This document shows, one piece after another, positions 3,354-61,395 of a stretch of DNA of 64,000 nt. Position numbers and translations under genes: made by a program. Each line of letters starts with the position of its first letter. Position 1 is the stretch's first letter. Source of the DNA: a virus (lineage: Duplodnaviria; Caudoviricetes). Under the pieces are notes generated by a model. That model worked only from the letters and a program-made list of their open reading frames with translations. It ran no database searches and was not told the DNA's origin. The DNA lies in the IMG/VR virus record IMGVR_UViG_2843291059_000004, positions 1-64,000 of that record; one strand, written 5' to 3'.

Positions 3354-3573
3354 CTGGCACCTCCACGGTAAAAATAGTTTTAGTTGCTTCTTTCCAAGAA
3401 ATAAACTCAGATCCAGCAACTTCCGCTCTACATCTATAGCACGCAATCACATTATTCTCAGGAATATCCAAATCAGGATTTTCAAAAGAAGCTACTCGAA
3501 TCTTAGTTGTACAACCGCAGTTCTTACATGGAAATACGATTACCGGATTTTTCAAACTATCAGTCTTATGCAT
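3343..3573 (-). CDS. Zn-ribbon small protein (paralog B)
   Basis: CKNCGC...CYRC. Confidence 0.65.
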   Translation of the reverse strand: MHKTDSLKNPVIVFPCKNCGCTTKIRVASFENPDLDIPENNVIACYRCRAEVAGSEFISWKEATKTIFTVEVPDGD

Positions 3574-16828: not shown

Positions 16829-17044
16829 TTATTCCTCCGGCATAGAATACGCCTTGGCATTCATTCGATGGCAGTCAAAAATATTTCCGATAATCTCGTA
16901 GCATCTTGACGCAGTATTATAGCTACCAAGAACAATTCCGCGTTCACCCATACCTTGCCTTGCGTAAACATTAAGGTTTGCGGCATCAATGATTGCCATG
17001 CGGTCAAGATTTATAATTTCTCCGCCTTGCGTTAAAAGTAGCAT
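16829..17044 (-). CDS. Hypothetical protein
   Basis: GAGG RBS before MLLLTQGG. Confidence 0.6.
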   Translation of the reverse strand: MLLLTQGGEIINLDRMAIIDAANLNVYARQGMGERGIVLGSYNTASRCYEIIGNIFDCHRMNAKAYSMPEE

Positions 17045-38193: not shown

Positions 38194-40404
38194 TTATTCG
38201 TGCCGATTCTCATAGAATTCATTCCGTAACTGAATAATACCCTTCTTGCAAAAAGATTCCTGGTCTTTCTCTCGTTGCTCACGCATCCAACCATAGAACA
38301 GGTTATCCTCAGCAGTAAACAACTTTGCGGTATTTTCATAATAGCCACGCTTCTGAACGCTCTGCATAACACCACGCAAGAACTTCCAGTGCTTATAATA
38401 AGGAAGCTTCAGCTTAAACATAAAATTGTTGTTATCTCTCAAAACAAAGCCTTCAATATGCTCGATGCCATTGTACAGATAATTCTCATTCATGACTTCT
38501 TCATACCAAGGATAGAATTCACTCCAGCTCTCAAAGATTTTAACCTTCTCCTTAATCTGCAAATGACACTTTTCAGCAACACGCTTCAGATCATCGTAAT
38601 CCATCACACTGAAGTTCATATCATTCGCAATAATATCCAGCAAAACAATATGTGGTGTCTTGTATTCGATGATATGCGGGTCATTTACAGGATCAATCAC
38701 CTCAAAAATGATGGAACCATTCTCTTTTGCAACTTCCTTCAGATTCTTACGGTCTTCATCAGAAGTCGTATCCATGAGAATTTTTCGGAACATATCTGCA
38801 AAAGGCCCTTCAGGAGTGGATTTACTTGCAATGAACAGACCATCCTGTTCTGCATCATACGAGACAATTCCAAGAAATCCGTTTTCCTTCAGATATGCAG
38901 TCACTGGGAACTTCAAAGTGTTCTGTAGGTTTCCAATTCTCGTTTCATTCCGCTCATCGACCGCAAAGAACTTATCATAGCTTCGAGCTACAATCTTATT
39001 CGTCTTTGTGTTAATGAACAATCCCCTTGCTTTGGTAGAAACCTCATCCCAGTGCTTCTTATAAAATGCTTCACGAGAGAAGTTGAAAGAAGAAATATCT
39101 CCGAATCGCTTCTCAAACACATATTTGCTTTGACGCATCTTACTGACAAGTTCTGCGTTATCGAACTCAGTTTTCATTTCAACGGCAGTTTCAGTCTTTG
39201 GCTCCTCTTTTCGGAACACATCATTCTTTGTTTCTACACATTTGATTGACTGACCATGTTCAAGTTCCACGCAACGGAGATATCCACCAAACTCGATTTT
39301 TCCTTCGAGGTTGTAGCACCGATGCCCCATATCAATAGGAACATCCTGCACATTTCGATGACCGAAGATCTGAATGTAGCTATCCGGCATCGATTTTTCC
39401 CAAGACTCAGCCACGGTTAGCATATCAGGATAGCGACCTACACCTTTAATCATCTGATCAGCAGATATAAAAGGAAGAAAATAAGGCAGATAACTCAAAC
39501 CACCGTGGCTCACGAAATACCGCTTCCCATCATACTCAAAGTAAGCACATTGGCCAACTCTGGAATAGATCTTACGAGCAGTGTTCTTGTCAATACCGGC
39601 TTTAAAGAGCTGCGGACGAGTGTAGTTTGCAAACTCTTCACTCTGAACCGGTTCATCATGCCCCCACTTGTTCAGCCAACGTTCGTGATTCCCCTCCAAA
39701 AGGATCACATTCTTGCGGTTGTTATTTACAACATCACACAAGAACTTGAATACCTCAACGTTCTCGATGCCACGATCGAGATAATCACCAACGAAGATAT
39801 AAAGTTCGTCGTCCTTCATCTCACCAAGGTATTCACTTAAACAAGTATAACAGCCATGAATGTCACCGATGACATGGATCTTCTTCCACTGGTTGAAGTC
39901 ATTCGGACAGTAGTTCAAATCGGACATCACATCTGTAGTAGAAGGAAGGACATTCACGCCAGAAGGAACTTTTTGAGTAGCAAACCGAGCGTACATCTTA
40001 TCAATGGCCGCTTCAGGAACTCGCTTCAGCCATTCTCTCTGAGCGTTTCTTCGTTTGCATTCCTCGATCGGAAGGTCCGTCATGTCAATAACATACATTC
40101 GATAACGATACTGTTTTGCAAGATTCTTATAACGATTCATTTCGACCGTCTTGGAATTCGTTGCATCAATCACGGTAAACTCGCCATGACTCATGCGCAC
40201 CTCAAGCAGTTTAAAAAGCATCTCCCATACAACATCATCATTCTGCGGAGAAATCTCCATCTTCCCGGCAGGTGTTTCCTGTGCGCTCTGGCACATAAGG
40301 CGAAGTGTATCAGCACTCAATACGTACTGCTCAAGATTATGCTCTTTAATATAGGTGGACTTCCCACAACCTGGTGCTCCACGGAACAGCAAAAGCGTTC
40401 TCAT
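38194..40404 (-). CDS. Pnkp-like RNA repair enzyme: polynucleotide kinase + metallophosphoesterase + RNA ligase
   Basis: GAPGCGKST/VIDATN kinase; GDIHG, GDYLDRG, GNHE phosphoesterase; KARGLF, KENGFLG, FEVI, EGFVL, KLK ligase motifs. Confidence 0.88.
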   Translation of the reverse strand: MRTLLLFRGAPGCGKSTYIKEHNLEQYVLSADTLRLMCQSAQETPAGKMEISPQNDDVVWEMLFKLLEVRMSHGEFTVIDATNSKTVEMNRYKNLAKQYRYRMYVIDMTDLPIEECKRRNAQREWLKRVPEAAIDKMYARFATQKVPSGVNVLPSTTDVMSDLNYCPNDFNQWKKIHVIGDIHGCYTCLSEYLGEMKDDELYIFVGDYLDRGIENVEVFKFLCDVVNNNRKNVILLEGNHERWLNKWGHDEPVQSEEFANYTRPQLFKAGIDKNTARKIYSRVGQCAYFEYDGKRYFVSHGGLSYLPYFLPFISADQMIKGVGRYPDMLTVAESWEKSMPDSYIQIFGHRNVQDVPIDMGHRCYNLEGKIEFGGYLRCVELEHGQSIKCVETKNDVFRKEEPKTETAVEMKTEFDNAELVSKMRQSKYVFEKRFGDISSFNFSREAFYKKHWDEVSTKARGLFINTKTNKIVARSYDKFFAVDERNETRIGNLQNTLKFPVTAYLKENGFLGIVSYDAEQDGLFIASKSTPEGPFADMFRKILMDTTSDEDRKNLKEVAKENGSIIFEVIDPVNDPHIIEYKTPHIVLLDIIANDMNFSVMDYDDLKRVAEKCHLQIKEKVKIFESWSEFYPWYEEVMNENYLYNGIEHIEGFVLRDNNNFMFKLKLPYYKHWKFLRGVMQSVQKRGYYENTAKLFTAEDNLFYGWMREQREKDQESFCKKGIIQLRNEFYENRHE

Positions 40405-40481: not shown

Positions 40482-41408
40482 TTAATTTTTGTGGAAGTAT
40501 TCGATCCAGCCCTTGTATCCTTGCCGGAAACTAATGTATGCAACCTTGCTGCACTTTCTTCCGATAATGTCCGCAAGAGGATCTTTACCATTTCCGAAAC
40601 TAAGTTCTGTAAGATTAAATTCTGGATGAGTTTTGCAGTAGTTATAAACCTTTACATACTCGCCGTTTCTGGTCAGATGTCTTCGGTCTAAAGCCTTTGA
40701 ATGATATCTTCTTTCGAGAATATCATTCAAGCGCGTGAAATAACTATGAATCGTATTCGTAGACATTCTTGAATCACTGTCTGCACCAGTTCTATCCTCT
40801 GTTTTGCGAAGAATGTAATCACCATTTATGACATAAAACGTTCTGTATCCTCCCATATTGGGGGCATCATATTGTTTCATTTCATAACACTGCTTGATGA
40901 TATTCATCAGTCTCGCGTCAACACTGGTCTTATTCAAAACAGTACATGATTCAAAGTCAACATCGTTAATCGTCAGATTGGAAACTTCTTCAGAAGTAAG
41001 GCCAATCCAGTACAGCACGGCAATCACATTCATACGAATCTGATATGGCTCTTCATACTTGTCCAAGAAATCAACAAACTCATCAACTGACGCAAAATAC
41101 TTGTCCTCGTACATATTGTCTGAACTCACATCGCTCTCCGAGAATTCAGCTAAGTCATACATACTCGCTCGATCCTCACTTTTGATGTACCCTGTAATTA
41201 TCGACTTTACATTTCTGAACGACCGACTTGAGTTCACCCAATTGTATTTAGCAAACATCTTTACAAAATCATCTTTTGTGAAGTCAAACAACTCATACCC
41301 ACGCTCGGCCTCGTAATCCATAACATGGTTAAGCGTCGATATAACAAACTCACCGCTTCTATCAGAATACTTTTCGGCAAAAGCTTTGATTTTTTCTTCA
41401 GTAAGCAT
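40482..41408 (-). CDS. Tyrosine-recombinase-fold protein, probably inactive; MrpR/YopR-like master repressor
   Basis: Box I VLYWIGLTSEEVSNLTINDVDF with Thr at the catalytic Arg position; helical N-terminal domain; SPbeta-like context. Confidence 0.7.
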   Translation of the reverse strand: MLTEEKIKAFAEKYSDRSGEFVISTLNHVMDYEAERGYELFDFTKDDFVKMFAKYNWVNSSRSFRNVKSIITGYIKSEDRASMYDLAEFSESDVSSDNMYEDKYFASVDEFVDFLDKYEEPYQIRMNVIAVLYWIGLTSEEVSNLTINDVDFESCTVLNKTSVDARLMNIIKQCYEMKQYDAPNMGGYRTFYVINGDYILRKTEDRTGADSDSRMSTNTIHSYFTRLNDILERRYHSKALDRRHLTRNGEYVKVYNYCKTHPEFNLTELSFGNGKDPLADIIGRKCSKVAYISFRQGYKGWIEYFHKN

Positions 41409-41459
41409 AGTGGCACACTCCTTCTTATTATGTAGTGTACCATTAAACCTGAGAACAAA

Positions 41460-41885
41460 TCAAGCAAATGCGGCAAAATTCTGAAATTCCATAGTATGTT
41501 GTACGCCGCTCAGAAATGCTGCGAGCAAAAATGGTTCATCTTTGCATCTTGCCATTGCAATCATATTCATCTGACGCTCCGACAAAACACCAAGTTTCTT
41601 GATGAACTGTCCTTTGTTAAGTGTATCAGTCTCTTCGCAGAGAACGATACTATCAACCTCTAGGAACTCACAGTCTTCCTTTGAAAGTAGAACATGAACC
41701 GGAGAACGCTTGCATGTTCTTGAAGATAACGGATTCCCCTTGATTGTTGGGCTGAAGAGGTTACGCTTGTTGTTACTTGTCACAACGAACGGTCGAATGC
41801 CGCGCTGCTGATGACCTGTCGCATTAGATAGATCAACCAACCAAACCTCTCCGACCTTTGGGTCAATATTGTTATCCATAGTCAT
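41460..41885 (-). CDS. mazF: MazF/PemK-family endoribonuclease (orphan)
   Basis: GEVWLVDL...GHQQRGIRPFVVTSN, PLSS, HV.L, DSIVLCE, KKLG.L. Confidence 0.85.
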   Translation of the reverse strand: MTMDNNIDPKVGEVWLVDLSNATGHQQRGIRPFVVTSNNKRNLFSPTIKGNPLSSRTCKRSPVHVLLSKEDCEFLEVDSIVLCEETDTLNKGQFIKKLGVLSERQMNMIAMARCKDEPFLLAAFLSGVQHTMEFQNFAAFA

Positions 41886-43067: not shown

Positions 43068-43247
43068 TCAACTTTCAATCTCCCAATCGCCTGCATTAAA
43101 CTCAGTTGATGGATATACACAATAATCCGACATGAAGCACATGATCTTCTGCCCCGTTCCATAAAAATCATAATCAATAACTTTCATTGTGTCCCCGTCT
43201 TCGGCCACAATAGTCTGTCCAGCTTTTAAAACATCAAAAGTTTTCAT
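43068..43247 (-). CDS. Small hypothetical protein (59 aa, MKTFDVLKAGQTIV...)
   Basis: Hand-translated; AGGAG RBS fused to junction palindrome. Confidence 0.65.
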   Translation of the reverse strand: MKTFDVLKAGQTIVAEDGDTMKVIDYDFYGTGQKIMCFMSDYCVYPSTEFNAGDWEIES

Positions 43248-43271
43248 AATATTACTCCTAAAATATTGGTT

Positions 43272-43583
43272 TTATAAATCATGCTCTGCAATGTATGGCC
43301 CATACAGACATCTTTTTACATCGTTGTTGAATAGCATACAAGCCACTTTCCCAAATGTTTGATATGCTGCATCTACGACTTCAAATTGAAGTGCCTCTGG
43401 AACATCTTGCAACTGCAGCAAGTTAAGCGTTCTGCTGTACACTCCGTCGTTTTTATCTTTCTTGAGACATATAACATCAAACATATCATCACAAAGCGCA
43501 AGAAGTTCAGTAGGGCCGAGATTGTTGTTAATGTATCGTCGAGCAGATTCTCGTTTGGAATCTGGAATCACTATAAATTTCAT
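43272..43583 (-). CDS. Hypothetical cassette-like gene
   Basis: Bounded by palindromes 43259 and 43598. Confidence 0.7.
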   Translation of the reverse strand: MKFIVIPDSKRESARRYINNNLGPTELLALCDDMFDVICLKKDKNDGVYSRTLNLLQLQDVPEALQFEVVDAAYQTFGKVACMLFNNDVKRCLYGPYIAEHDL

Positions 43584-43616
43584 AAGACTGCCTCCTATAA
43601 AAGATTAGTTTTATCG

Positions 43617-43814
43617 TTATTTTACATACACGATAAAATATGCCTTGTCCATTGGGTGCTCAATCCGCAGAACTTCGTACTTGTCAGCATCTTCCATCGA
43701 AATCTTTGAAACACTATTGTAAATCAAATGCTGTCCATAAACGCCATGACCTTCATTTGCGACAAGTACCGCTTCATCTTTACTCATAACAGATAACAGC
43801 TCGGCCAACTTCAT
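43617..43814 (-). CDS. Hypothetical cassette-like gene
   Basis: Bounded by palindromes 43598 and 43828. Confidence 0.7.
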   Translation of the reverse strand: MKLAELLSVMSKDEAVLVANEGHGVYGQHLIYNSVSKISMEDADKYEVLRIEHPMDKAYFIVYVK

Positions 43815-43826
43815 ATTAAATCCTCC

Positions 43827-43997
43827 TTAAATCTTAGCTTTTTTATCAGACTCAGCTAACTGAAGCTCTTCCAACGAAAACGAAAGTCTTCCGCCTCCGC
43901 AAAAAGTAGTGAACTCAACAATGGCAGTATCTCCGTCGATTTCATCGATAATGCCTTCGCACCAATCTTCAGCGTAAACTTTGTCTCCAACTTTCAT
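43827..43997 (-). CDS. Small SH3/KOW-like protein (MKVGDKVYAEDWCEGIIDEID...)
   Basis: Hand-translated; bounded by palindromes 43828 and 44012. Confidence 0.65.
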   Translation of the reverse strand: MKVGDKVYAEDWCEGIIDEIDGDTAIVEFTTFCGGGRLSFSLEELQLAESDKKAKI

Positions 43998-44027
43998 AAC
44001 TACTCTCTCCTTAAATCTCAGCTTCTA

Positions 44028-44276
44028 TCAAAAATCAGAATGCAGCACTACCGGGGAGCGACTGTCTACATCGCAGAACACACACTCCCATTTTGGAGAT
44101 TCCTCGTAATATTTATAGTTTCCTTGCGGTTTCCATGTTAAAACCAAAACATTTTTTTGACTGCTATAATAAGCAGCATTTACCTCTGTTGCATCACATT
44201 CCCAGCCGCTATCCGTTTCGATAAAAACATCACTTGGTAGCTTTTCCAAAATCTTAATTAACTCTGTAGCAATCAT
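44028..44276 (-). CDS. Hypothetical cassette-like gene
   Basis: Bounded by palindromes 44012 and 44289. Confidence 0.7.
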   Translation of the reverse strand: MIATELIKILEKLPSDVFIETDSGWECDATEVNAAYYSSQKNVLVLTWKPQGNYKYYEESPKWECVFCDVDSRSPVVLHSDF

Positions 44277-44309
44277 ATGAAACTCTCCTAGAACTTAACT
44301 TTCATCACA

Positions 44310-44609
44310 TCAACTACGTTCTTTAATCAAACCATTAGCCGATGCCTCTGCTCTTAATTTTATGAGTTCTTTCTTTGTTTCAAAATTTTTCTCATATCTT
44401 TCCATAAAAGCCCGAACGTTCATGTTCTTCTGGTTATTCGGAAAGATAAATTCATCTAAAATACCATCTTTTGTTACCGTATAAATATCCTTTGATGTAT
44501 ACTGTTTTTTCAATTTCACCTCAAAGCCATGTTTTAATAGCCAAGAGATAGCTAGTTTCTCTTGTTTATTAAAGTCCCATTTTTTATTTTCAAGTCCTTG
44601 TAAATTCAT
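44310..44609 (-). CDS. Hypothetical protein
   Basis: GAGGTGG RBS. Confidence 0.7.
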   Translation of the reverse strand: MNLQGLENKKWDFNKQEKLAISWLLKHGFEVKLKKQYTSKDIYTVTKDGILDEFIFPNNQKNMNVRAFMERYEKNFETKKELIKLRAEASANGLIKERS

Positions 44610-44714
44610 AAGTCCACCTCATTCCATGCTTGCGCATTCTGTGGTTATGCAAAGTTTAACAGCACAACCAATCATAGTCAAGTAATTTCCAACATTTTCA
44701 TAAGAACCCGGATT

Positions 44715-44891
44715 TTATGACTGTCTACCACGAAGCACATATGCCATTGTGTCTAGTAGATCTGCCACCGAGCACGGATGCGACATAACTTCATTTTCAA
44801 TCAGAAAAGTGTCGTTCATTCTCATCCAAACCGCAATATCTTCAGCTTTGTCGGCAACTACCATTTGTTCATATTCCTTCAAGTCAATCAT
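44715..44891 (-). CDS. Hypothetical protein
   Basis: GGGAG RBS; stop in palindrome 44702. Confidence 0.6.
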   Translation of the reverse strand: MIDLKEYEQMVVADKAEDIAVWMRMNDTFLIENEVMSHPCSVADLLDTMAYVLRGRQS

Positions 44892-44932
44892 TACTCTTCT
44901 CCCTTTTTCCGATACTACAGACAAATATTTTA

Positions 44933-45145
44933 TTAACCCTTGTTCATTACTTCCTCAATCTTGCAATTGATAGAATCAATCTCACGCATCAGCTTACAGC
45001 GATAATTTCCGTTCCTGTTAAGTCTGAAACATAAATCCTCATCGTCACTCTTATAACCCATATAGCATCCAGACCTGCACAGGCTTGTCGCATCAAGAGC
45101 GTCTTGGATTACTCGTGCCTCATTAAGAGTCAAATCAATTTTCAT
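44933..45145 (-). CDS. Hypothetical protein
   Basis: AGGTGG RBS. Confidence 0.65.
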   Translation of the reverse strand: MKIDLTLNEARVIQDALDATSLCRSGCYMGYKSDDEDLCFRLNRNGNYRCKLMREIDSINCKIEEVMNKG

Positions 45146-45160
45146 CGTTGTTCACCACCT

Positions 45161-45403
45161 TTACTCTTCTGCCTTTTCTCCGATACCACAGATAAATACC
45201 TTATGTTTTCCATTCTCGTCACGCTGCCAATCACCACCAAGCATCTCAATCGTATGGCACACTGAATAATAAGCTACGGTTGAATTGACGGCCTCTTTGT
45301 CTCTTTCAAAATCATTCGTTTTTATAAAATGCCAGTTGTTATCAAGCCAATTGACTACCCTTATAACCCCTGCACGAAGCTCTTTTTCTTTCTTGTTTGC
45401 CAT
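45161..45403 (-). CDS. Hypothetical protein
   Basis: Co-oriented ORF. Confidence 0.65.
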   Translation of the reverse strand: MANKKEKELRAGVIRVVNWLDNNWHFIKTNDFERDKEAVNSTVAYYSVCHTIEMLGGDWQRDENGKHKVFICGIGEKAEE

Positions 45404-45422
45404 TTTATTTTACTCATTTGTA

Positions 45423-45932
45423 TTACATATCCTGATTTACAGAGTTCCATGTCTCTGTCGAAATGCTGTCATTCTCATCAGACAGGCAATCAATCCAAGC
45501 ATTGAGCACTTCACGGTACACTGTCATATTTGGACAAAAATGACTGTTGGTGAATACCGGCATATCGTCATTACACAGAATTCTCATAATAGCAGCACAC
45601 ACGGCTGCAGATCTCGATACGCCAGCAGCACAATTTACGCAGAACCAATCGGTCTTATCTGCTTCGTGGTTATCCAAGACAAATTTCACAATATTCCTAG
45701 CTTGAATATCCGTAATACATGTACCTTCTAAATCAGTAGTGCAATCATCAAACTTTAACGGCAGAAAAGTAATATTACCCTCACACTTATGGAAATCAAT
45801 ATGATGACCATTAGCTTCAGTGATTGAGATAAACCGAATCCGTTCAAAATGTGGCTGTCGGATAAAGTCTTCTGCATCTTCTGCACTCATCACTGAAAAT
45901 TTCCACTTTCTCCGATACATCGTAATAATCAT
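45423..45932 (-). CDS. Cys-based (PTP/DSP-like) phosphatase
   Basis: FDD general-acid loop, VNCAAGVSRS (CX5R), PN. Confidence 0.85.
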   Translation of the reverse strand: MIITMYRRKWKFSVMSAEDAEDFIRQPHFERIRFISITEANGHHIDFHKCEGNITFLPLKFDDCTTDLEGTCITDIQARNIVKFVLDNHEADKTDWFCVNCAAGVSRSAAVCAAIMRILCNDDMPVFTNSHFCPNMTVYREVLNAWIDCLSDENDSISTETWNSVNQDM

Positions 45933-45953
45933 TTCGTTTTCCCTCCAAAGAAT

Positions 45954-46163
45954 TTAGGTTTTATCAATAAATGATAAATCAAGATCTTCAAACTCAACCA
46001 CCTCATAATCTTCTGTTGGGTGGTTTGCATATATTTTTATTGCTTCATTTACTGACGGATGTTTCAGTAAATATAACAATCGTTTCATCCCTTCTTTTGA
46101 GATGTTATACTCTTCCCGAATCATCTCGACTGCTCCTTCAAAGCGCAAACGGATCATTGCCAA
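45954..46163 (-). CDS. Hypothetical protein
   Basis: Co-oriented ORF; start uncertain. Confidence 0.55.
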   Translation of the reverse strand: MAMIRLRFEGAVEMIREEYNISKEGMKRLLYLLKHPSVNEAIKIYANHPTEDYEVVEFEDLDLSFIDKT

Positions 46164-46223
46164 TTGTTATTATGAGTGCAACATTCAAAGCAAATATCAT
46201 AAACGCGGTCATTCTTTATCACC

Positions 46224-46412
46224 TCAATCTCTAAATTCAATATCGACAACAATATTTTCTGGCTCTGTCATGTACCTTCGTGCCAGCAGTTCTACCATGC
46301 GTTCCTTGTCCCCAAGATTGCTATTACGCAAAAGATACGAACAAACTTGCTTGCCCCTGTACAAGAACACAGCCCATGCACTTCTCTTTAATGGGTTTGT
46401 GGTCTTAATCAT
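46224..46412 (-). CDS. Hypothetical protein
   Basis: GGAGG RBS. Confidence 0.65.
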   Translation of the reverse strand: MIKTTNPLKRSAWAVFLYRGKQVCSYLLRNSNLGDKERMVELLARRYMTEPENIVVDIEFRD

Positions 46413-46714
46413 TCCATTGCTTCCTCCAGATATGTAGTCACATCACCAAAATCAAAATCCAGAGCACCAATCATATCATCCAGAGCATCCACAGCATCAG
46501 ACAAATTCGTGCAAGCATTATCCGCTTTATCATATCGTTCACTGCCCTGCAGGTTCTCAGGCATATTGTCACGATACTCTTCTTCTTCCCACTGGATATC
46601 CTCGACATCGGACTTTATGCTTTCGACATCCGCCACAAGTTCTTCCAGCTTCTTACGGATGGAATCAAAACGGTCAATGGTTTGCTTAATAGCTTTTCTA
46701 CGAGTGTTATTCAT
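46409..46714 (-). CDS. Coiled-coil phage protein
   Basis: EEEEYRDNMPENLQGSERY; AAAGGAG RBS. Confidence 0.75.
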   Translation of the reverse strand: MNNTRRKAIKQTIDRFDSIRKKLEELVADVESIKSDVEDIQWEEEEYRDNMPENLQGSERYDKADNACTNLSDAVDALDDMIGALDFDFGDVTTYLEEAME

Positions 46715-46728
46715 TTTCAAATCTCCTT

Positions 46729-47130
46729 TCAATCTACGATACCAAGCTTGCAAATATTTTTCGGATCAGTGATATAACCAAACGTCAATGTGTTTCGCAG
46801 ATATCCTTTGTATTCAAAACCACGGTCACGAGCTGCTAGACGACACACATCTCGAATCGCGGATTCTCTCGGCCAAGAAATACCAGCCACCTGGTATTTC
46901 CACTGAAGATCCCTCAGCTTCTGCCACTCAATCACAGGCTTTTTTTCATTCTCGAAGCACAAACCGTTCTGTACGGCATATTTCAGAGCATCACATCGCT
47001 TACTCTCTTCCGATGTACAAGTTCCCCACTCATTTTCCAGATGACGATACGCTCTATCAAACGGTGCTTGCTTTGCTGCATCAATGCCAAATGCCGCTCC
47101 AAGCAAACCCAAGCCAAGTAACAGTCCCAT
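46729..47130 (-). CDS. Hypothetical protein with hydrophobic N-terminus
   Basis: GGAGG RBS. Confidence 0.7.
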   Translation of the reverse strand: MGLLLGLGLLGAAFGIDAAKQAPFDRAYRHLENEWGTCTSEESKRCDALKYAVQNGLCFENEKKPVIEWQKLRDLQWKYQVAGISWPRESAIRDVCRLAARDRGFEYKGYLRNTLTFGYITDPKNICKLGIVD

Positions 47131-47133
47131 AAT

Positions 47134-47319
47134 TTAAACCTCCAATTTACTTTTATCAATGTCAAACGTAAAACCATCATCTGTTTCCTGATAGTTCACT
47201 TCATCAAGTGCCTTATCCCGTCGTCTATTCTCTTCCACTATTTTAGCAACATTGGGATGATGCAGATTATACACAAACTGCTTTGCTTCATCGTCTCGCA
47301 AAACGATATCTTCATTCAC
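47134..47319 (-). CDS. Hypothetical protein
   Basis: AGGAG RBS at palindrome 47333. Confidence 0.6.
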   Translation of the reverse strand: MNEDIVLRDDEAKQFVYNLHHPNVAKIVEENRRRDKALDEVNYQETDDGFTFDIDKSKLEV

Positions 47320-47348
47320 ATAATCACGCTCCTAAAATCACTCTTTTA

Positions 47349-47549
47349 TCAATCATTATACCAATCAAGAAACTTTTCCCATCTCGAAAGTTCATCATCT
47401 GTCATACTCTTCAACCTCATTTCTAAAGATTCTTCAAGTAATTGAATATTTGTGAACTCTTCGTCTGTTGGTGTATATCCTAAAAATAGCGATATAACTT
47501 CAATACTTTCAGGTATAATACCTCTTAAAACTCGTTCAATCTGTGTCAT
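47349..47549 (-). CDS. Hypothetical protein
   Basis: Stop abuts palindrome. Confidence 0.6.
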   Translation of the reverse strand: MTQIERVLRGIIPESIEVISLFLGYTPTDEEFTNIQLLEESLEMRLKSMTDDELSRWEKFLDWYND

Positions 47550-47741
47550 TTATCCTACAACCTCAACACCCATAACGTTTTTTACAACAAAATTATCGTA
47601 TTCACTGAAGCTTTTAACAGCCAAAGATTTTGCTTCAGATTTATTTTCCGAAAACAAAGTCACTGCCGTCTCATATAAAACAGAGAATCCTTCAAGTTGA
47701 TTGTCCTGTACTTTAACAAACACTTTATACCAATTACCCAT
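47550..47741 (-). CDS. Hypothetical protein
   Basis: AGGAGG RBS at palindrome 47752. Confidence 0.6.
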   Translation of the reverse strand: MGNWYKVFVKVQDNQLEGFSVLYETAVTLFSENKSEAKSLAVKSFSEYDNFVVKNVMGVEVVG

Positions 47742-47764
47742 AACAACCTCCTAAAATATTACTT

Positions 47765-48439
47765 TTAAGCATCTTTCTTTATTAGCGGACGTCTATGCGT
47801 CGCATTTTTCAGCCAATCACCATCGCTGGGCATCTCCCTACTCACTCTAAGATTACGACCGCCACCTATCGGACACACTCGACGGTAATCATCAACAGTC
47901 TTGCAGCCAAGAGATTCGGCTTCATCCAGTGCCTTTCGCACATAAGCCCATGTGCTACCGCCTAGATCAGAGCACTTTCCAATCACAGCAAGTACAAGTT
48001 CGTCACCCATGCGCTCAACATATTCTGCCAAAGCTTTCTGCCCAGTAGCACCGAGCTTCCCGATATTCTCTCGAAATACATCCTCGATCGGTTTCGTCGT
48101 TGTCGTCTCATCACAAGACGAAGACGATATCTTATCTTTTTCTTTCTCTTTTTCTTTTTCTAGCTTTGTTTTGCTTGCGTTTGCTTCGTTTTGCTTACGC
48201 TTGCTTTCACCGCCAGCTTTTCCAGAAATGCGCTTACCTTCGATGTATTCGGCATCTTTAATCAAATCTCTCTTGATAGCAGGCCACACGTACCGCTCAT
48301 TTCCGATGAGTTCAGGTTCCGTTCCAGACGATTTATATTTCATCATCGCCAGTACCAGACGCCCCACCTCAGCAGCACTAAGGGGTTCAAAGTAGCTCTC
48401 GTAAGTATCCCAGATTTTAATATAAGTATCAGCCATCAT
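47765..48439 (-). CDS. DUF6291 + DnaD-domain replication initiator-like protein
   Basis: EPLSAAEVGRLVLAMMKY N-domain, GKAGG, EKEKEKEK linker, FRENIG...WAYVRKAL DnaD-like domain. Confidence 0.78.
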   Translation of the reverse strand: MMADTYIKIWDTYESYFEPLSAAEVGRLVLAMMKYKSSGTEPELIGNERYVWPAIKRDLIKDAEYIEGKRISGKAGGESKRKQNEANASKTKLEKEKEKEKDKISSSSCDETTTTKPIEDVFRENIGKLGATGQKALAEYVERMGDELVLAVIGKCSDLGGSTWAYVRKALDEAESLGCKTVDDYRRVCPIGGGRNLRVSREMPSDGDWLKNATHRRPLIKKDA

Positions 48440-48444
48440 ACACC

Positions 48445-49323
48445 TCACATTGCTACAATTGAACAATGACAATCAACGCCATAGTCGATGTTAGAATAAT
48501 ATTCTCTATCAACGTCTGCATTTAATCCAATGTAGTGAAGCGTAATAGCCTGATTACTGTGATTCAGGCTATGTTGCAACCACGCAAGTGCCATCTGGTC
48601 ATCTTTATGATTCATCATGAATTGATAACCAAAAGTCTTTCGACAACTATGCGTCCCAAGTTTATAAGAAAGCCCTAAGTCTTTTTGAGCTTTTCTCATA
48701 ATCTGTCCAAACGTATCAACATCAATCGGGTCACCTTTCTTCTTTGGATCAGCTTCATATTTTACAACTTTCACTGCATTTGATTTTCCCCCTCCAACTT
48801 TCCAAGAAGAAATACCCCCATTCGTTCTTAATGAATTTTTGCTACTTCCTTTCTGAGATGGGAAAAGCCACGAATGATACGACGGCCTCGTTAGCCGAAT
48901 ATATTCAGCTATAATCTGCATTGTGTTCTGCCCAATTACAACATCGCGATATTTTCCTGTCTTTTTCTCCTTAAAGCGAACATTGACTGTTTCATTAACA
49001 ACAAGTTTTCCATCAACCAGGTGCGATACATCTTCAACTCTAAATCGAAGAAGGTCACTCGCACGAAATCCTGTGGCAATACCAAGATTAAACAAGCACC
49101 AATCTCTATACTTCTTTTTATTATAGAAATATTCAGAAATAGCCTGAATATCTTTTACGTCACGAATCGGTTCAACTTCACCATTTCGTGCCACAGAATA
49201 TCGAGTGATGTTGTAATTTTTTCCTTTAGAATATTGAGTTGTTTCTTGATTAACATCTTCATCTAAATATTCGTCAATACTTATAAAATCCGATTCATAC
49301 TCTTCCTGTGCTAATGCTCCCAT
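48445..49323 (-). CDS. Tyrosine recombinase (catalytic-domain type, intact)
   Basis: VEPIRD, GIATGFRASDLL (R), EKKTGK (K), LFPS, THSCRKTFG (HxxR), LNHS...TLHYIG (H,Y). Confidence 0.92.
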   Translation of the reverse strand: MGALAQEEYESDFISIDEYLDEDVNQETTQYSKGKNYNITRYSVARNGEVEPIRDVKDIQAISEYFYNKKKYRDWCLFNLGIATGFRASDLLRFRVEDVSHLVDGKLVVNETVNVRFKEKKTGKYRDVVIGQNTMQIIAEYIRLTRPSYHSWLFPSQKGSSKNSLRTNGGISSWKVGGGKSNAVKVVKYEADPKKKGDPIDVDTFGQIMRKAQKDLGLSYKLGTHSCRKTFGYQFMMNHKDDQMALAWLQHSLNHSNQAITLHYIGLNADVDREYYSNIDYGVDCHCSIVAM

Positions 49324-54002: not shown

Positions 54003-54017
54003 AATAAAACTCTCCTT

Positions 54018-61318: not shown

Positions 61319-61395
61319 GCACTAAAATGTAGATTTTATTAACGTCGCATTTTAGTGCGTTGATACGTTGTTTATTTGTGACTGTTTTGTGAATG

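Follow-up and report, generated by a model that had tools for sequence, protein, structure and literature searches.

SPbeta-like phages place a real motif, the palindrome TAAAA-N6-TTTTA, between their small early genes. As each 16-mer is kept with its own centre while both neighbouring genes are replaced, these elements are most likely fixed crossover joints, and on balance we favour the reading that they are matched by address and that the crossover would fall inside the element itself. The motif is described here for the accessory early-gene region, at 43-48 kb, of an SPbeta-like gut phage; the window is the whole stretch of DNA that was analysed, 64,000 nucleotides of a 134,478-bp contig. 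No published account of the palindrome was found in the literature.

The exact palindrome occurs 23 times in the contig, compared with 0-1 copies at each of the other spacings from N0 to N15 and 0-2 copies of a reversed control. Within the window, 33 matches with at most one mismatch are found against 7.0±2.4 in shuffles. The motif is conserved in three lineages, and the Bacillus phages SPbeta and phi3T are among its carriers: relatives (G001, G002, G005, G006, G018-G021, G022, SPbeta and phi3Ts) hold 14-34 copies each and at most 4 at other spacings or in controls. Copies are spread genome-wide, although the early arm, the first 64 kb, has 17 of the 23, and the usual frame of the element is a stop codon (TGA or TAA), the palindrome, GGAGG and a start codon. 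Across 50 sites with distinct spacers, the invariant part is confined to 5 bp per arm and the edge rule is symmetric, the first spacer base being A in 5 of 50 and the last being T in none. Position -1 is A in 33 of the 50 (66%), tracking gene orientation, and there is no signal further out. The arms are universal, and every genomic slot has a 6-bp centre of its own; between orthologous sites, the arms vary by 3.8% and the flanks by 9.0%.

The array contains ten sites, listed here with the genes around them.

43068-43247, 43272-43583, 43617-43814, 43827-43997, 44028-44276 and 44310-44609, minus strand: six small cargo ORFs with strong SDs
43259-43274, minus strand: exact joint with the spacer ccaata, as read on the minus strand; flanked by the stop of 43272-43583 and the SD of 43068-43247
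43598-43613, minus strand: exact joint, spacer ctaatc; 16-mer identical in 8 genomes
43828-43843, minus strand: degenerate joint with 2 mismatches and a spacer, gctaag, of the RYTRAG family; the upstream ORF runs on into the joint and has its stop in the right arm
44012-44027, minus strand: degenerate joint with 2 mismatches; its spacer, gctgag, is of the RYTRAG family
44289-44304, minus strand: degenerate joint with 2 mismatches and the spacer gttaag; a four-gene block replaced in relative L001 has its left edge here
44702-44717, minus strand: degenerate joint or remnant of one, with the spacer tccggg; a 450-bp insertion relative to L001 has its edge here
44715-44891, 44933-45145, 45161-45403, 45423-45932 and 45954-46124, minus strand: variable ORFs
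45948-45963, minus strand: weak candidate for a joint, with 2 mismatches and the spacer cctaaa, lying upstream of the 169-aa gene
46224-46412, 46409-46714 (phrog_4068) and 46729-47130, minus strand: three-gene core block, kept in 18 of 18 genomes
47134-47319, 47349-47549 and 47550-47741, minus strand: three-gene insert, present or absent among relatives
47144-47158, minus strand: tenth copy, a degenerate joint whose spacer has 5 nt (TGA-TAAAA-gtaaa-TT-GGAGG); core gene 46729-47130 follows downstream
47333-47348, minus strand: exact joint, spacer gagtga
47752-47767, minus strand: exact joint, spacer gtaata; the left arm gives the stop codon of the DnaD-like gene
47765-48472, minus strand: DnaD-like replication initiator or helicase loader (DUF6291 + DnaB_2), between recombinase and array
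48445-49323, minus strand: 292-aa tyrosine recombinase, catalytic R-K-HxxR-H-Y set conserved

Nine of these sites had been named in the original prediction, and they are of unequal quality. Four are exact (43259, 43598, 47333 and 47752) and five carry two mismatches; of the latter, 43828, 44012, 44289 and 44702 are backed by better copies in relatives, and 45948, for which no better copy was seen elsewhere, lacks such backing. Two-mismatch matches at 43.0-47.8 kb number 23 against 9.5±3.2 in shuffles and are not significant taken alone; position and better copies elsewhere serve as support for the four. For instance, the site at 44289 has an ortholog with one mismatch in L001, and the tccggg spacer of 44702 also sits on an exact copy in L127. 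The sites at 43828, 44012 and 44289 share the RYTRAG spacer family, which is found at many junctions in relatives; the kinship noticed earlier among their plus-strand spacers, CTTAGC, CTCAGC and CTTAAC, is genuine and belongs to the most promiscuous junction family. The claim of one ORF per interval likewise holds for the five minus-strand ORFs from 43068-43247 to 44028-44276. The array does lie near the recombinase, whose end is 678 bp from the first site, with the DnaD-like gene filling the gap.

The cargo ORFs are real genes outside known families: the six from 43068 to 44609 have pN/pS values of 0-0.40 where homologs exist, and 15 small ORFs compared with Pfam and PHROG gave zero matches. 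The 169-aa product of 45423-45932 is assigned to phrog_5614, with a weak DSPc match. The core block (46224-47130) has pN/pS values of 0.06-0.24 and zero internal joints. A weak MrpR-like protein is also encoded in the window, at 40482-41408.

Gene content and order in this variable slot differ in 18 of 18 relatives compared; identical order and content, which would speak against the predicted cassette-like array, are therefore not what these genomes present. The junction between genes 3 and 4 exists in six states, all assembled from the same joints, and single genes such as gene 31 are present or absent between joints. Each spacer family occupies one genomic slot and has several different left and right neighbours. 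The ccaata spacer at 43259 is invariant in 18 genomes next to left neighbours 20, 40, 49, 23 or 110 and right neighbours 21 or 7, and the 16-mer at 47333 joins left genes 3, 58 or 74 to right genes 4, 31 or 100 in different genomes. Across the 8 genomes sharing the 16-mer at 43598, both flanks differ at 0.60-0.63 per site. The site at 47752 is the edge of the three-gene insertion, which is missing in L001 and L002, and ends of homology segments (HSPs) fall at 45948 in 10 relatives and coincide with the junction at 47144-47158 in 12. In an island test, the 16-mers show 0-0.13 differences per site in six of seven spacer families, with up to 0.18 in the seventh (tcgagg), and the 12 nt on either side show 0.25-0.63 and are largely unrelated; pS in the core genes neighbouring the joints is ~0.38. 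The spacer addresses are collinear in G000 and G018. The proposal that exchange points coincide with the sites is supported, in that 16-mers including their spacers persist while both neighbours change.

An independent replicate is provided by SPbeta and phi3Ts, which have 21 identical 16-mers in common, in collinear order, against a chance expectation of ~0.25. Four to five of the 21 are islands of 18-23 identical bp amid unrelated DNA, and a further 4-5 lie exactly at a one-sided homology edge. In the one laboratory phi3Ts-SPbeta hybrid examined, the crossover lies inside 18 kb of identical sequence, which makes this hybrid uninformative about the joints.

Several observations count against crossover joints, and some of them would equally suit an operator for a dimeric early-gene regulator, acting in transcription or translation, with the palindrome forming part of each gene's initiation region and the mosaicism arising from ordinary gene-boundary recombination. 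Homology breaks at 16 of 46 site-bearing junctions (35%) and at 120 of 374 site-less gene junctions (32%), a similarity which fits an operator and does not support the idea that site-bearing junctions are more break-prone than others; many mosaic breakpoints of this region, including 46124, 45403, 45145 and 44891, are at site-less junctions. Where homology does break at a site, 6 of 10 downstream-gene-side ends lie 0-1 nt from the palindrome edge, which speaks for the joints; the site remains with the downstream gene in 10 of 15 breaks, as an operator would. Some copies (21090, 14476 and 30827) are located within conserved core genes or between them, and exchange is not observed there. We read 14-16 of the 23 copies as overlapping a translation-initiation region, and three registers occur: at 43259 and 47333 the SD comes after the right arm, at 54005 and 56075 it is part of the spacer, and at 17033 and contig position 94008 the ATG falls in the left arm or spacer. 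This overlap is compatible with a role in expression, as are the early-arm enrichment and the promoter-like setting of some copies (the tagaca family and 61323). Counted against the joints alone are the arms of 5 bp plus the A at -1, far shorter than the 10-13 bp of known tyrosine-recombinase sites, and the replacement of HxxR by HxxK in SPbeta YomM and YopP. An operator with a free spacer, however, should lose that spacer once both neighbours have been swapped, and identical 16-mers persist between unrelated flanks, in the same slot, in many genomes. A candidate regulator is not known. The SPbeta master repressor MrpR/SroF, which has a recombinase fold, reads a different motif, SPBRE (PMC10516654; bioRxiv 10.1101/2025.11.27.690993). 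SPBRE resembles the palindrome as a repeated element dispersed intergenically in SPbeta-like phages and read by a tyrosine-recombinase-fold protein, but it is ACAAATAATATGTATA-like in SPbeta and asymmetric, a monomer binds it over 24 bp, and it has ~10 copies. Recovered from nine of ten MrpR-peak SPbeta promoters, it reads CAAA(T/A)AATATGTATA, which the palindrome does not match; just ~3 of 34 SPbeta copies of the palindrome lie near the ten MrpR peaks, and no repeated SPBRE equivalent was found in this phage genome. An operator is therefore an unlikely account, albeit one that still deserves weight. Much less probable is an element of the polycistronic early mRNA, be it a small hairpin, terminator, processing site or translational-coupling signal. 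Its position between cistrons, A/U-rich and abutting the SD, with an A at -1 that follows gene orientation, would suit such a role, but predicted hairpins are weak (-0.3 to -3.8 kcal/mol; z-scores of -1.2 to +1.5 against shuffles), Rfam gave no match, a conserved stem with a free loop is the opposite of known protein-binding RNA hairpins, and the conserved slot-specific spacers are left unexplained. It is barely credible that the element lacks a dedicated function and that a stop codon, an AT-rich spacer and an SD mimic it by accident: TGA, TAA and TTTTA followed by G (TAG) do supply stops, GGAGG supplies the SD and chance two-mismatch matches are common, but the spacing test already contradicts this (23 exact copies at N6, 0-1 at N5 or N7), the spacing bias recurs in three lineages, copies also occur away from any SD and the arms are conserved above their flanks.

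The remaining alternative is that of integron-like cassettes run by the adjacent 292-aa recombinase, with single-gene circles excised and re-inserted at the sites. The likeness lies in same-orientation, single-gene units bracketed by a repeated site, content that varies among relatives (single genes between joints, and all 18 gene orders) and a nearby tyrosine recombinase, which is catalytically complete in every relative and conserved in 22 related genomes. In integrons, attC sites are imperfect repeats of 57-141 bp recombined as folded single strands, IntI carries a specific extra domain, and attI and the Pc promoter lie next to intI. This phage shows none of these features: the sites are 16 bp long and fold no better than shuffles, the DnaD-like gene intervenes between recombinase and array, and a strong promoter is absent at the junction. 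The 292-aa protein matches no IntI-specific family or dedicated IntI model in NCBIfam; the one model naming integron integrases that came up, NF040815 ('site-specific tyrosine recombinase/integron integrase', XerA type), scored 42.9 bits against a cut-off of 220, and in PHROG the protein falls into a generic integrase family. A core-binding domain is not recognisable at its N-terminus, and the protein diverges fast (49-61% identity among relatives), whereas the sites do not. Moreover, the copies are distributed over the whole genome rather than downstream of the recombinase gene, and SPbeta, phi3Ts and the 79-kb phage G022, none of which has an ortholog, carry the motif in equal abundance. The originally proposed tie to this enzyme is therefore not supported, the protein being a poor candidate because SPbeta and the 79-kb phage carry the motif without the gene, and we regard integron-like cassettes as improbable. 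If the enzyme is a tyrosine recombinase, a YomM-like protein fits the phyletic pattern better: it is encoded at 94,556-95,545 of the contig, outside the window, is catalytically complete in G000 and G022, has a homolog in SPbeta, and co-occurs with the motif in all three lineages.

Among known systems, the promoter-early stem-loops (PeSLs) of T4-type phages offer one parallel (Arbiol et al. 2010, PMC2839356; Comeau et al. 2014, PMC4122927). They too are short repeated intergenic elements that reach from the stop codon of one gene to the SD of the next, are concentrated in hyperplastic regions before ORFans with a few in core modules, and mark points of insertion, deletion and replacement between close relatives, as the sites do here. 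PeSLs, however, are longer, combine a sigma70 promoter with a stable GC-rich terminator hairpin and are exchanged by homologous recombination. The junctions described here are 12-33 nt long and lack both a promoter and a stable hairpin (a promoter scan gave matches no commoner than in shuffles and none at joints), and what is conserved in them is a strict 5-6-5 palindrome, with a centre found in one slot only. Xer systems are similar in a different manner, as exemplified by the pdif (XerC/XerD) sites flanking dif modules on Acinetobacter plasmids (PMC6449649), which are numerous, two-armed, centred on ~6 bp, located in accessory regions and adjacent to adaptive genes. The palindrome shares the plan of two inverted arms around a 6-8 bp centre, with its strict N6 and symmetric edges, and the inner arm of the Xer core sites difH/difSL ends GAAAA/TTTTC, close to TAAAA/TTTTA (PMC5357621). 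Xer sites, in contrast, have arms of 10-11 conserved bp and are substrates of host XerC/D, XerH or XerS; the palindrome has 5 bp per arm (plus the A at -1), and its centres vary among sites, each slot keeping its own.

The crossover-joint reading would work as follows. Related phages present in the same cell would exchange DNA inside a joint common to both, with the same arms and the same centre, and unrelated genes would be joined in register; small genes would therefore be gained, lost and swapped slot by slot, and every junction would retain the stop of the upstream gene and the ribosome-binding site of the downstream gene. The exchange might be carried out by a phage tyrosine recombinase, with the 6-bp centre as its overlap region, or by homologous recombination on 18-24 bp of identity. 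Heterospecific lox and FRT sites, with identical arms and different spacers, pair like with like and swap segments in register, which is the basis of recombinase-mediated cassette exchange. They are laboratory designs with 13-bp arms and a known enzyme, and their likeness to the palindrome is an analogy only. A natural system of cassette exchange, in which a tyrosine recombinase, the YomM-like one being the best candidate, would read the 5-bp arms and the centres at 20-35 slots would serve as overlaps restricting exchange to the same slot, is a tentative possibility. If true, unrelated accessory genes, those for counter-defence included, would be reassorted in register, without sequence homology, between co-infecting relatives.

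A 16-bp palindrome, TAAAA-N6-TTTTA, recurs along a 134,478-bp phage contig whose first 64 kb make up the window. The contig holds 23 exact copies, against 0-1 at any of the other spacings between N0 and N15 and 0-2 per spacing in a reversed-arrangement control, and the window holds 33 palindromes with at most one mismatch, against 7.0 ± 2.4 in shuffles. The motif is real. The same spacing-specific excess marks the related genomes G001 (24 copies), G002 (18), G005 (21), G006 (20) and G018-G021 (14-25), as well as G022, a distantly related 79-kb phage (16 copies vs 0-3 at other spacings), SPbeta (34 vs 0-3) and phi3Ts, a phi3T-type Bacillus phage (30 vs 1-4); it was not seen in other phage contigs having one match to the pattern. 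In G022 (L131-L134; 79,099 bp), with which seven proteins are common at E<1e-5, the 16 palindromes lie mostly at gene starts. In a set of 50 sites whose spacers all differ, A opens the spacer in only 5 and T never closes it, and the base 5' of the left arm is A at 33. A literature search on the motif string returned a single match, an unrelated archaeal regulator paper.

Homologs of SPbeta (AF020713) YorI/J/K/L, the YonO RNA polymerase, terminase and the tape-measure protein, found by local BLAST, show that the window comes from an SPbeta-like phage, sampled in a gut metagenome. IMG/VR contains 22 or more relatives, 67-137 kb in length. The coding strand is the minus strand up to about 56-64 kb and the plus strand from there on. 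The minus-strand arm carries a replication and nucleotide-metabolism set (NrdD, an ATP-dependent ligase, a RecD2-like helicase, Pol III alpha, and RecJ-like, primase-like and C5 methylase proteins), together with a Pnkp/Rnl fusion, a MazF-like protein, a DnaD-like initiator and a tyrosine recombinase. The 736-aa fusion (38194-40404) comprises a polynucleotide kinase, a phosphatase and a T4-type RNA ligase 1; at its position, 7 of 18 relatives carry two different proteins, of clusters 29 and 30, which may be a split form. The YonO-like single-chain RNA polymerase at contig 71,067-73,898 (L155:1068-3899; Pfam RdRP 5e-14; 24% identity to SPbeta YonO) makes it probable that late-gene transcription relies on a phage enzyme.

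A typical copy of the palindrome reads, on the coding (minus) strand, TGA-TAAAA-N6-TTTTA-GGAGG, then 6-8 nt and ATG. The upstream gene may stop at a TGA 5' of the left arm, at the left-arm TAA, at a TAA or TGA in the spacer, or at a TAG or TAA that the right arm forms with the following base; therefore any incoming reading frame, whatever its register, closes within the element. On our reading, 14-16 of the 23 share bases with a translation-initiation region. Register variants place the Shine-Dalgarno sequence within the spacer (54005, 56075) or the start codon within the left arm or spacer (17033 and contig position 94008), and a few palindromes are intragenic (14476, 30827) or, at 61323, in a promoter-like setting. 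This last copy (61323-61338) lies inside a longer inverted repeat (CACTAAAAT ... ATTTTAGTG) with TTGACA 4 nt on, in a 190-nt intergenic region, and may be a regulatory site. At sites with the spacer tagaca (L113:~3385-3400 and equivalents in relatives, downstream of the Pnkp gene; the window has no copy), the spacer is itself a -35-like hexamer, TAGACA, followed after 18 nt by TAGAAT ahead of a tRNA/small-RNA region. An RNA hairpin or terminator is not a credible function of the palindrome, as it folds no better than shuffles and matches no Rfam family.

The original prediction described nine such sites as a cassette array downstream of the recombinase:

Sites and recombinase of the predicted array (minus-strand arm)
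43259: exact palindrome
43598: exact palindrome
43828: degenerate palindrome, two mismatches
44012: degenerate palindrome, two mismatches
44289: degenerate palindrome, two mismatches
44702: degenerate palindrome, two mismatches
45948: degenerate palindrome, two mismatches
47144-47158: extra degenerate copy, 5-nt spacer
47333: exact palindrome
47752: exact palindrome
48445-49323, minus strand: tyrosine recombinase, 292 aa

In a stretch this AT-rich, many two-mismatch matches arise by chance (9.5 ± 3.2 in shuffles; 23 observed), so the five degenerate sites cannot be called from the window sequence alone. Relatives support four of them: the ortholog of 44289 in stretch L001 has one mismatch, 44702 has the same spacer as an exact copy in L127, and the spacers of 43828, 44012 and 44289 fall in one family (gttaag/gctgag/actaag/gctaag) present at many junctions. 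The site at 45948 is weak. The single ORF per interval, the related spacers of neighbouring sites and the distance from the recombinase (about 700 bp predicted, 678 bp found) were all correctly described.

Gene content around these sites turns over rapidly. The comparison took in the 16.7 kb surrounding the recombinase in 15 further relatives, besides two close ones. Clustering of all called proteins gave 11 core proteins common to all 18 genomes, in the blocks 0-1-2(recombinase)-3(DnaD-like), 4-5-6 and 7-8-9(MazF)-10(integrase-like). Between-block content is unlike in every genome, and no two of the 18 genomes agree in gene order in the slot that separates block 4-5-6 from block 7-10; the identical order and content that would have refuted the original prediction is thus not what the relatives show. 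The junction of genes 3 and 4 exists in six states: no site; one site; one site with gene 31; two sites with genes 57-58 and 31; two sites with gene 74; and two sites with genes 74 and 100. Across these states the 16-mer with spacer gagtga has varying left and right partners. Likewise, the spacers cagttc, ccaata, ctaatc, tagaca and tcgagg occupy one slot each with two to seven different neighbours per side, and the order of spacers is identical in the contig and G018.

The 16-mers are islands of conservation within this turnover. Among genomes holding a given spacer, six of the seven families show 0-0.13 differences per site over arms and spacer together, and the tcgagg family, some of whose matches may be spurious, up to 0.18; the spacer itself is invariant for ccaata in 18 genomes, tagaca in 16 and ctaatc in 8. 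The 12-nt flanks differ by 0.30-0.63 (left) and 0.25-0.60 (right), and synonymous divergence of adjacent core genes is about 0.38. The 16-mers and their centres are therefore kept much better than neutral sites. At orthologous sites of the contig and G005/G006, differences amount to 3.8% in arms, 6.0% in spacers and 9.0% in 20-nt flanks.

Two cultured phages replicate this independently: SPbeta and phi3Ts have 21 identical 16-mers in collinear order, where about 0.25 would be expected by chance (34 x 30 pairs, 4,096 possible spacers). Eleven lie within homologous DNA. Four or five sit exactly where homology starts, the identical run stopping 0-6 nt before the left arm and extending up to 1.6 kb on the opposite side, and another four or five form islands, 18-23 identical bases long, whose flanks are as unlike as random 60-mers. 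In MT366946, a laboratory hybrid of phi3Ts and SPbeta, the change from one parent to the other falls within 18 kb identical in both, so this hybrid does not bear on the joints.

From these comparisons, we consider it somewhat more probable than its denial that the palindromes are address-matched, fixed crossover joints. The elements would serve as fixed joints for in-register DNA exchange between related phages, and a slot-specific centre (the address) would allow only equivalent joints to pair. A site-specific reaction is a tentative possibility: the overlap region of tyrosine-recombinase sites must match between partners, a logic that universal arms with address-like centres would follow, and the inner arms resemble those of difH and difSL (PMC5357621). 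Exchange by short homology is judged only slightly less probable; homologous recombination on 18-24 identical bases would leave identical footprints, and it is the mechanism proposed for the PeSLs of T4-type phages (PMC2839356, PMC4122927). That the palindrome is a regulatory operator without a role in exchange appears unlikely, though little less probable than short homology. A promoter scan found no sigma70 promoter at the joints. The remaining probability was assigned to other rivals.

Breakpoint counts do not single out the joints. Between the contig and G005/G006 genome-wide, homology breaks at 16 junctions with a site, spans 22 and lacks a homolog at 8 (n=46), and for site-less gene junctions the numbers are 120, 182 and 72 (n=374), that is, no enrichment of breaks (35% vs 32%). 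Identity steps across spanned sites gave p=0.23 with only 7 usable cases. Homology with relatives also breaks at the site-less junctions 46124, 45403, 45145 and 44891, and an imperfect direct repeat of ~38 nt (44893-44930 and 45163-45200) brackets the gene at 44933-45145, one copy forming the 3' end of the gene at 45161-45403 and the other being intergenic. This repeat marks a separate, palindrome-free route of gene insertion, and the joints are therefore not the sole places of exchange. Approached from the downstream gene, 6 of 10 homology ends stop 0-1 nt from the palindrome edge. The joints stand out by their precision and persistence, the element outliving the replacement of both its neighbours.

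The adjacent 292-aa recombinase does not appear to be tied to the joints. Its catalytic residues (R, K, HxxR, H, Y) are kept in all relatives, and its N-terminus has a variable stretch of ~55 aa and no recognisable core-binding domain. It is only 49-61% identical among genomes with identical joints, its flanking genes being much closer, and no ortholog was found in G022 or SPbeta, both of which carry the motif, so its position next to the array seems incidental. A prophage search with one genome per species returned recombinase relatives at only 27-30% identity, so neither host nor att site was obtained. A second tyrosine recombinase, outside the window (contig 94,556-95,545; L154:1557-2546), combines a SAM-like core-binding domain with a full catalytic set. 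Its identity to the G005/G006 proteins is 99.4-99.7%, and it has homologs in G022 (L131:1143-2102, complete) and SPbeta (YomM, with HxxK). The phyletic pattern of this YomM-like enzyme fits a candidate reader of the arms, but with three lineages that are themselves related this is weak evidence. The enzyme lies in a three-gene block that has a palindrome on either side, at 94008 and 96087. An earlier indication that G022 has the motif without a tyrosine recombinase was discarded: the whole-genome PF00589 search, whose negatives need checking, had missed a 320-aa ORF that a direct Pfam scan identified as a complete recombinase (36.6 bits; cut-off 27.1). Sequence matches of both recombinases to solved structures were weak and generic (Xer/Int) or absent.

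An integrase-fold protein (308 aa, 40482-41408) is a weak relative of MrpR/SroF (Pfam MrpR_N_CB, E=4e-4), the recombinase-fold master repressor of SPbeta, which binds the operator SPBRE (PMC10516654). With the adjoining MazF/PemK-like toxin (41460-41885) and a 122-aa ORF it forms a group (40482-41885) that is core in 18 relatives. SPBRE, recovered from SPbeta promoters as CAAA(T/A)AATATGTATA, is a different, asymmetric motif, which rules out its identity with the palindrome. Three of ten published MrpR ChAP-seq peak regions (aimR, yorE and yosX; AF020713 76171, 99498 and 129297) hold a palindrome beside SPBRE, roughly 25-125 nt ahead of the start of the gene.

The origin of phage mosaics is a long-standing question: special linkers between modules, or illegitimate joins made at random and then sorted by selection. 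Finding a defined 16-bp element at the joints, its centre specific to the slot, bears on this question, and the presence of the element in the genetically tractable Bacillus phages SPbeta (34 copies) and phi3T (30) makes the joint idea directly testable. The genes between joints are small early ORFans with fast turnover. No Pfam or PHROG family was found for 15 small ORFs scanned between 43068 and 47741, while the 169-aa and 101-aa proteins fall in PHROGs whose function is unknown. For ORFs with homologs, pN/pS ranges from 0 to 0.57, so the cargo ORFs are real genes. Comparison of close relatives among Bacillus SPbeta-like phages has yielded anti-defence proteins (bioRxiv 10.1101/2023.05.01.538930). 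If such genes sit between joints, the joints may be their route of spread and would provide a simple rule for spotting swappable cargo in metagenomic phages.
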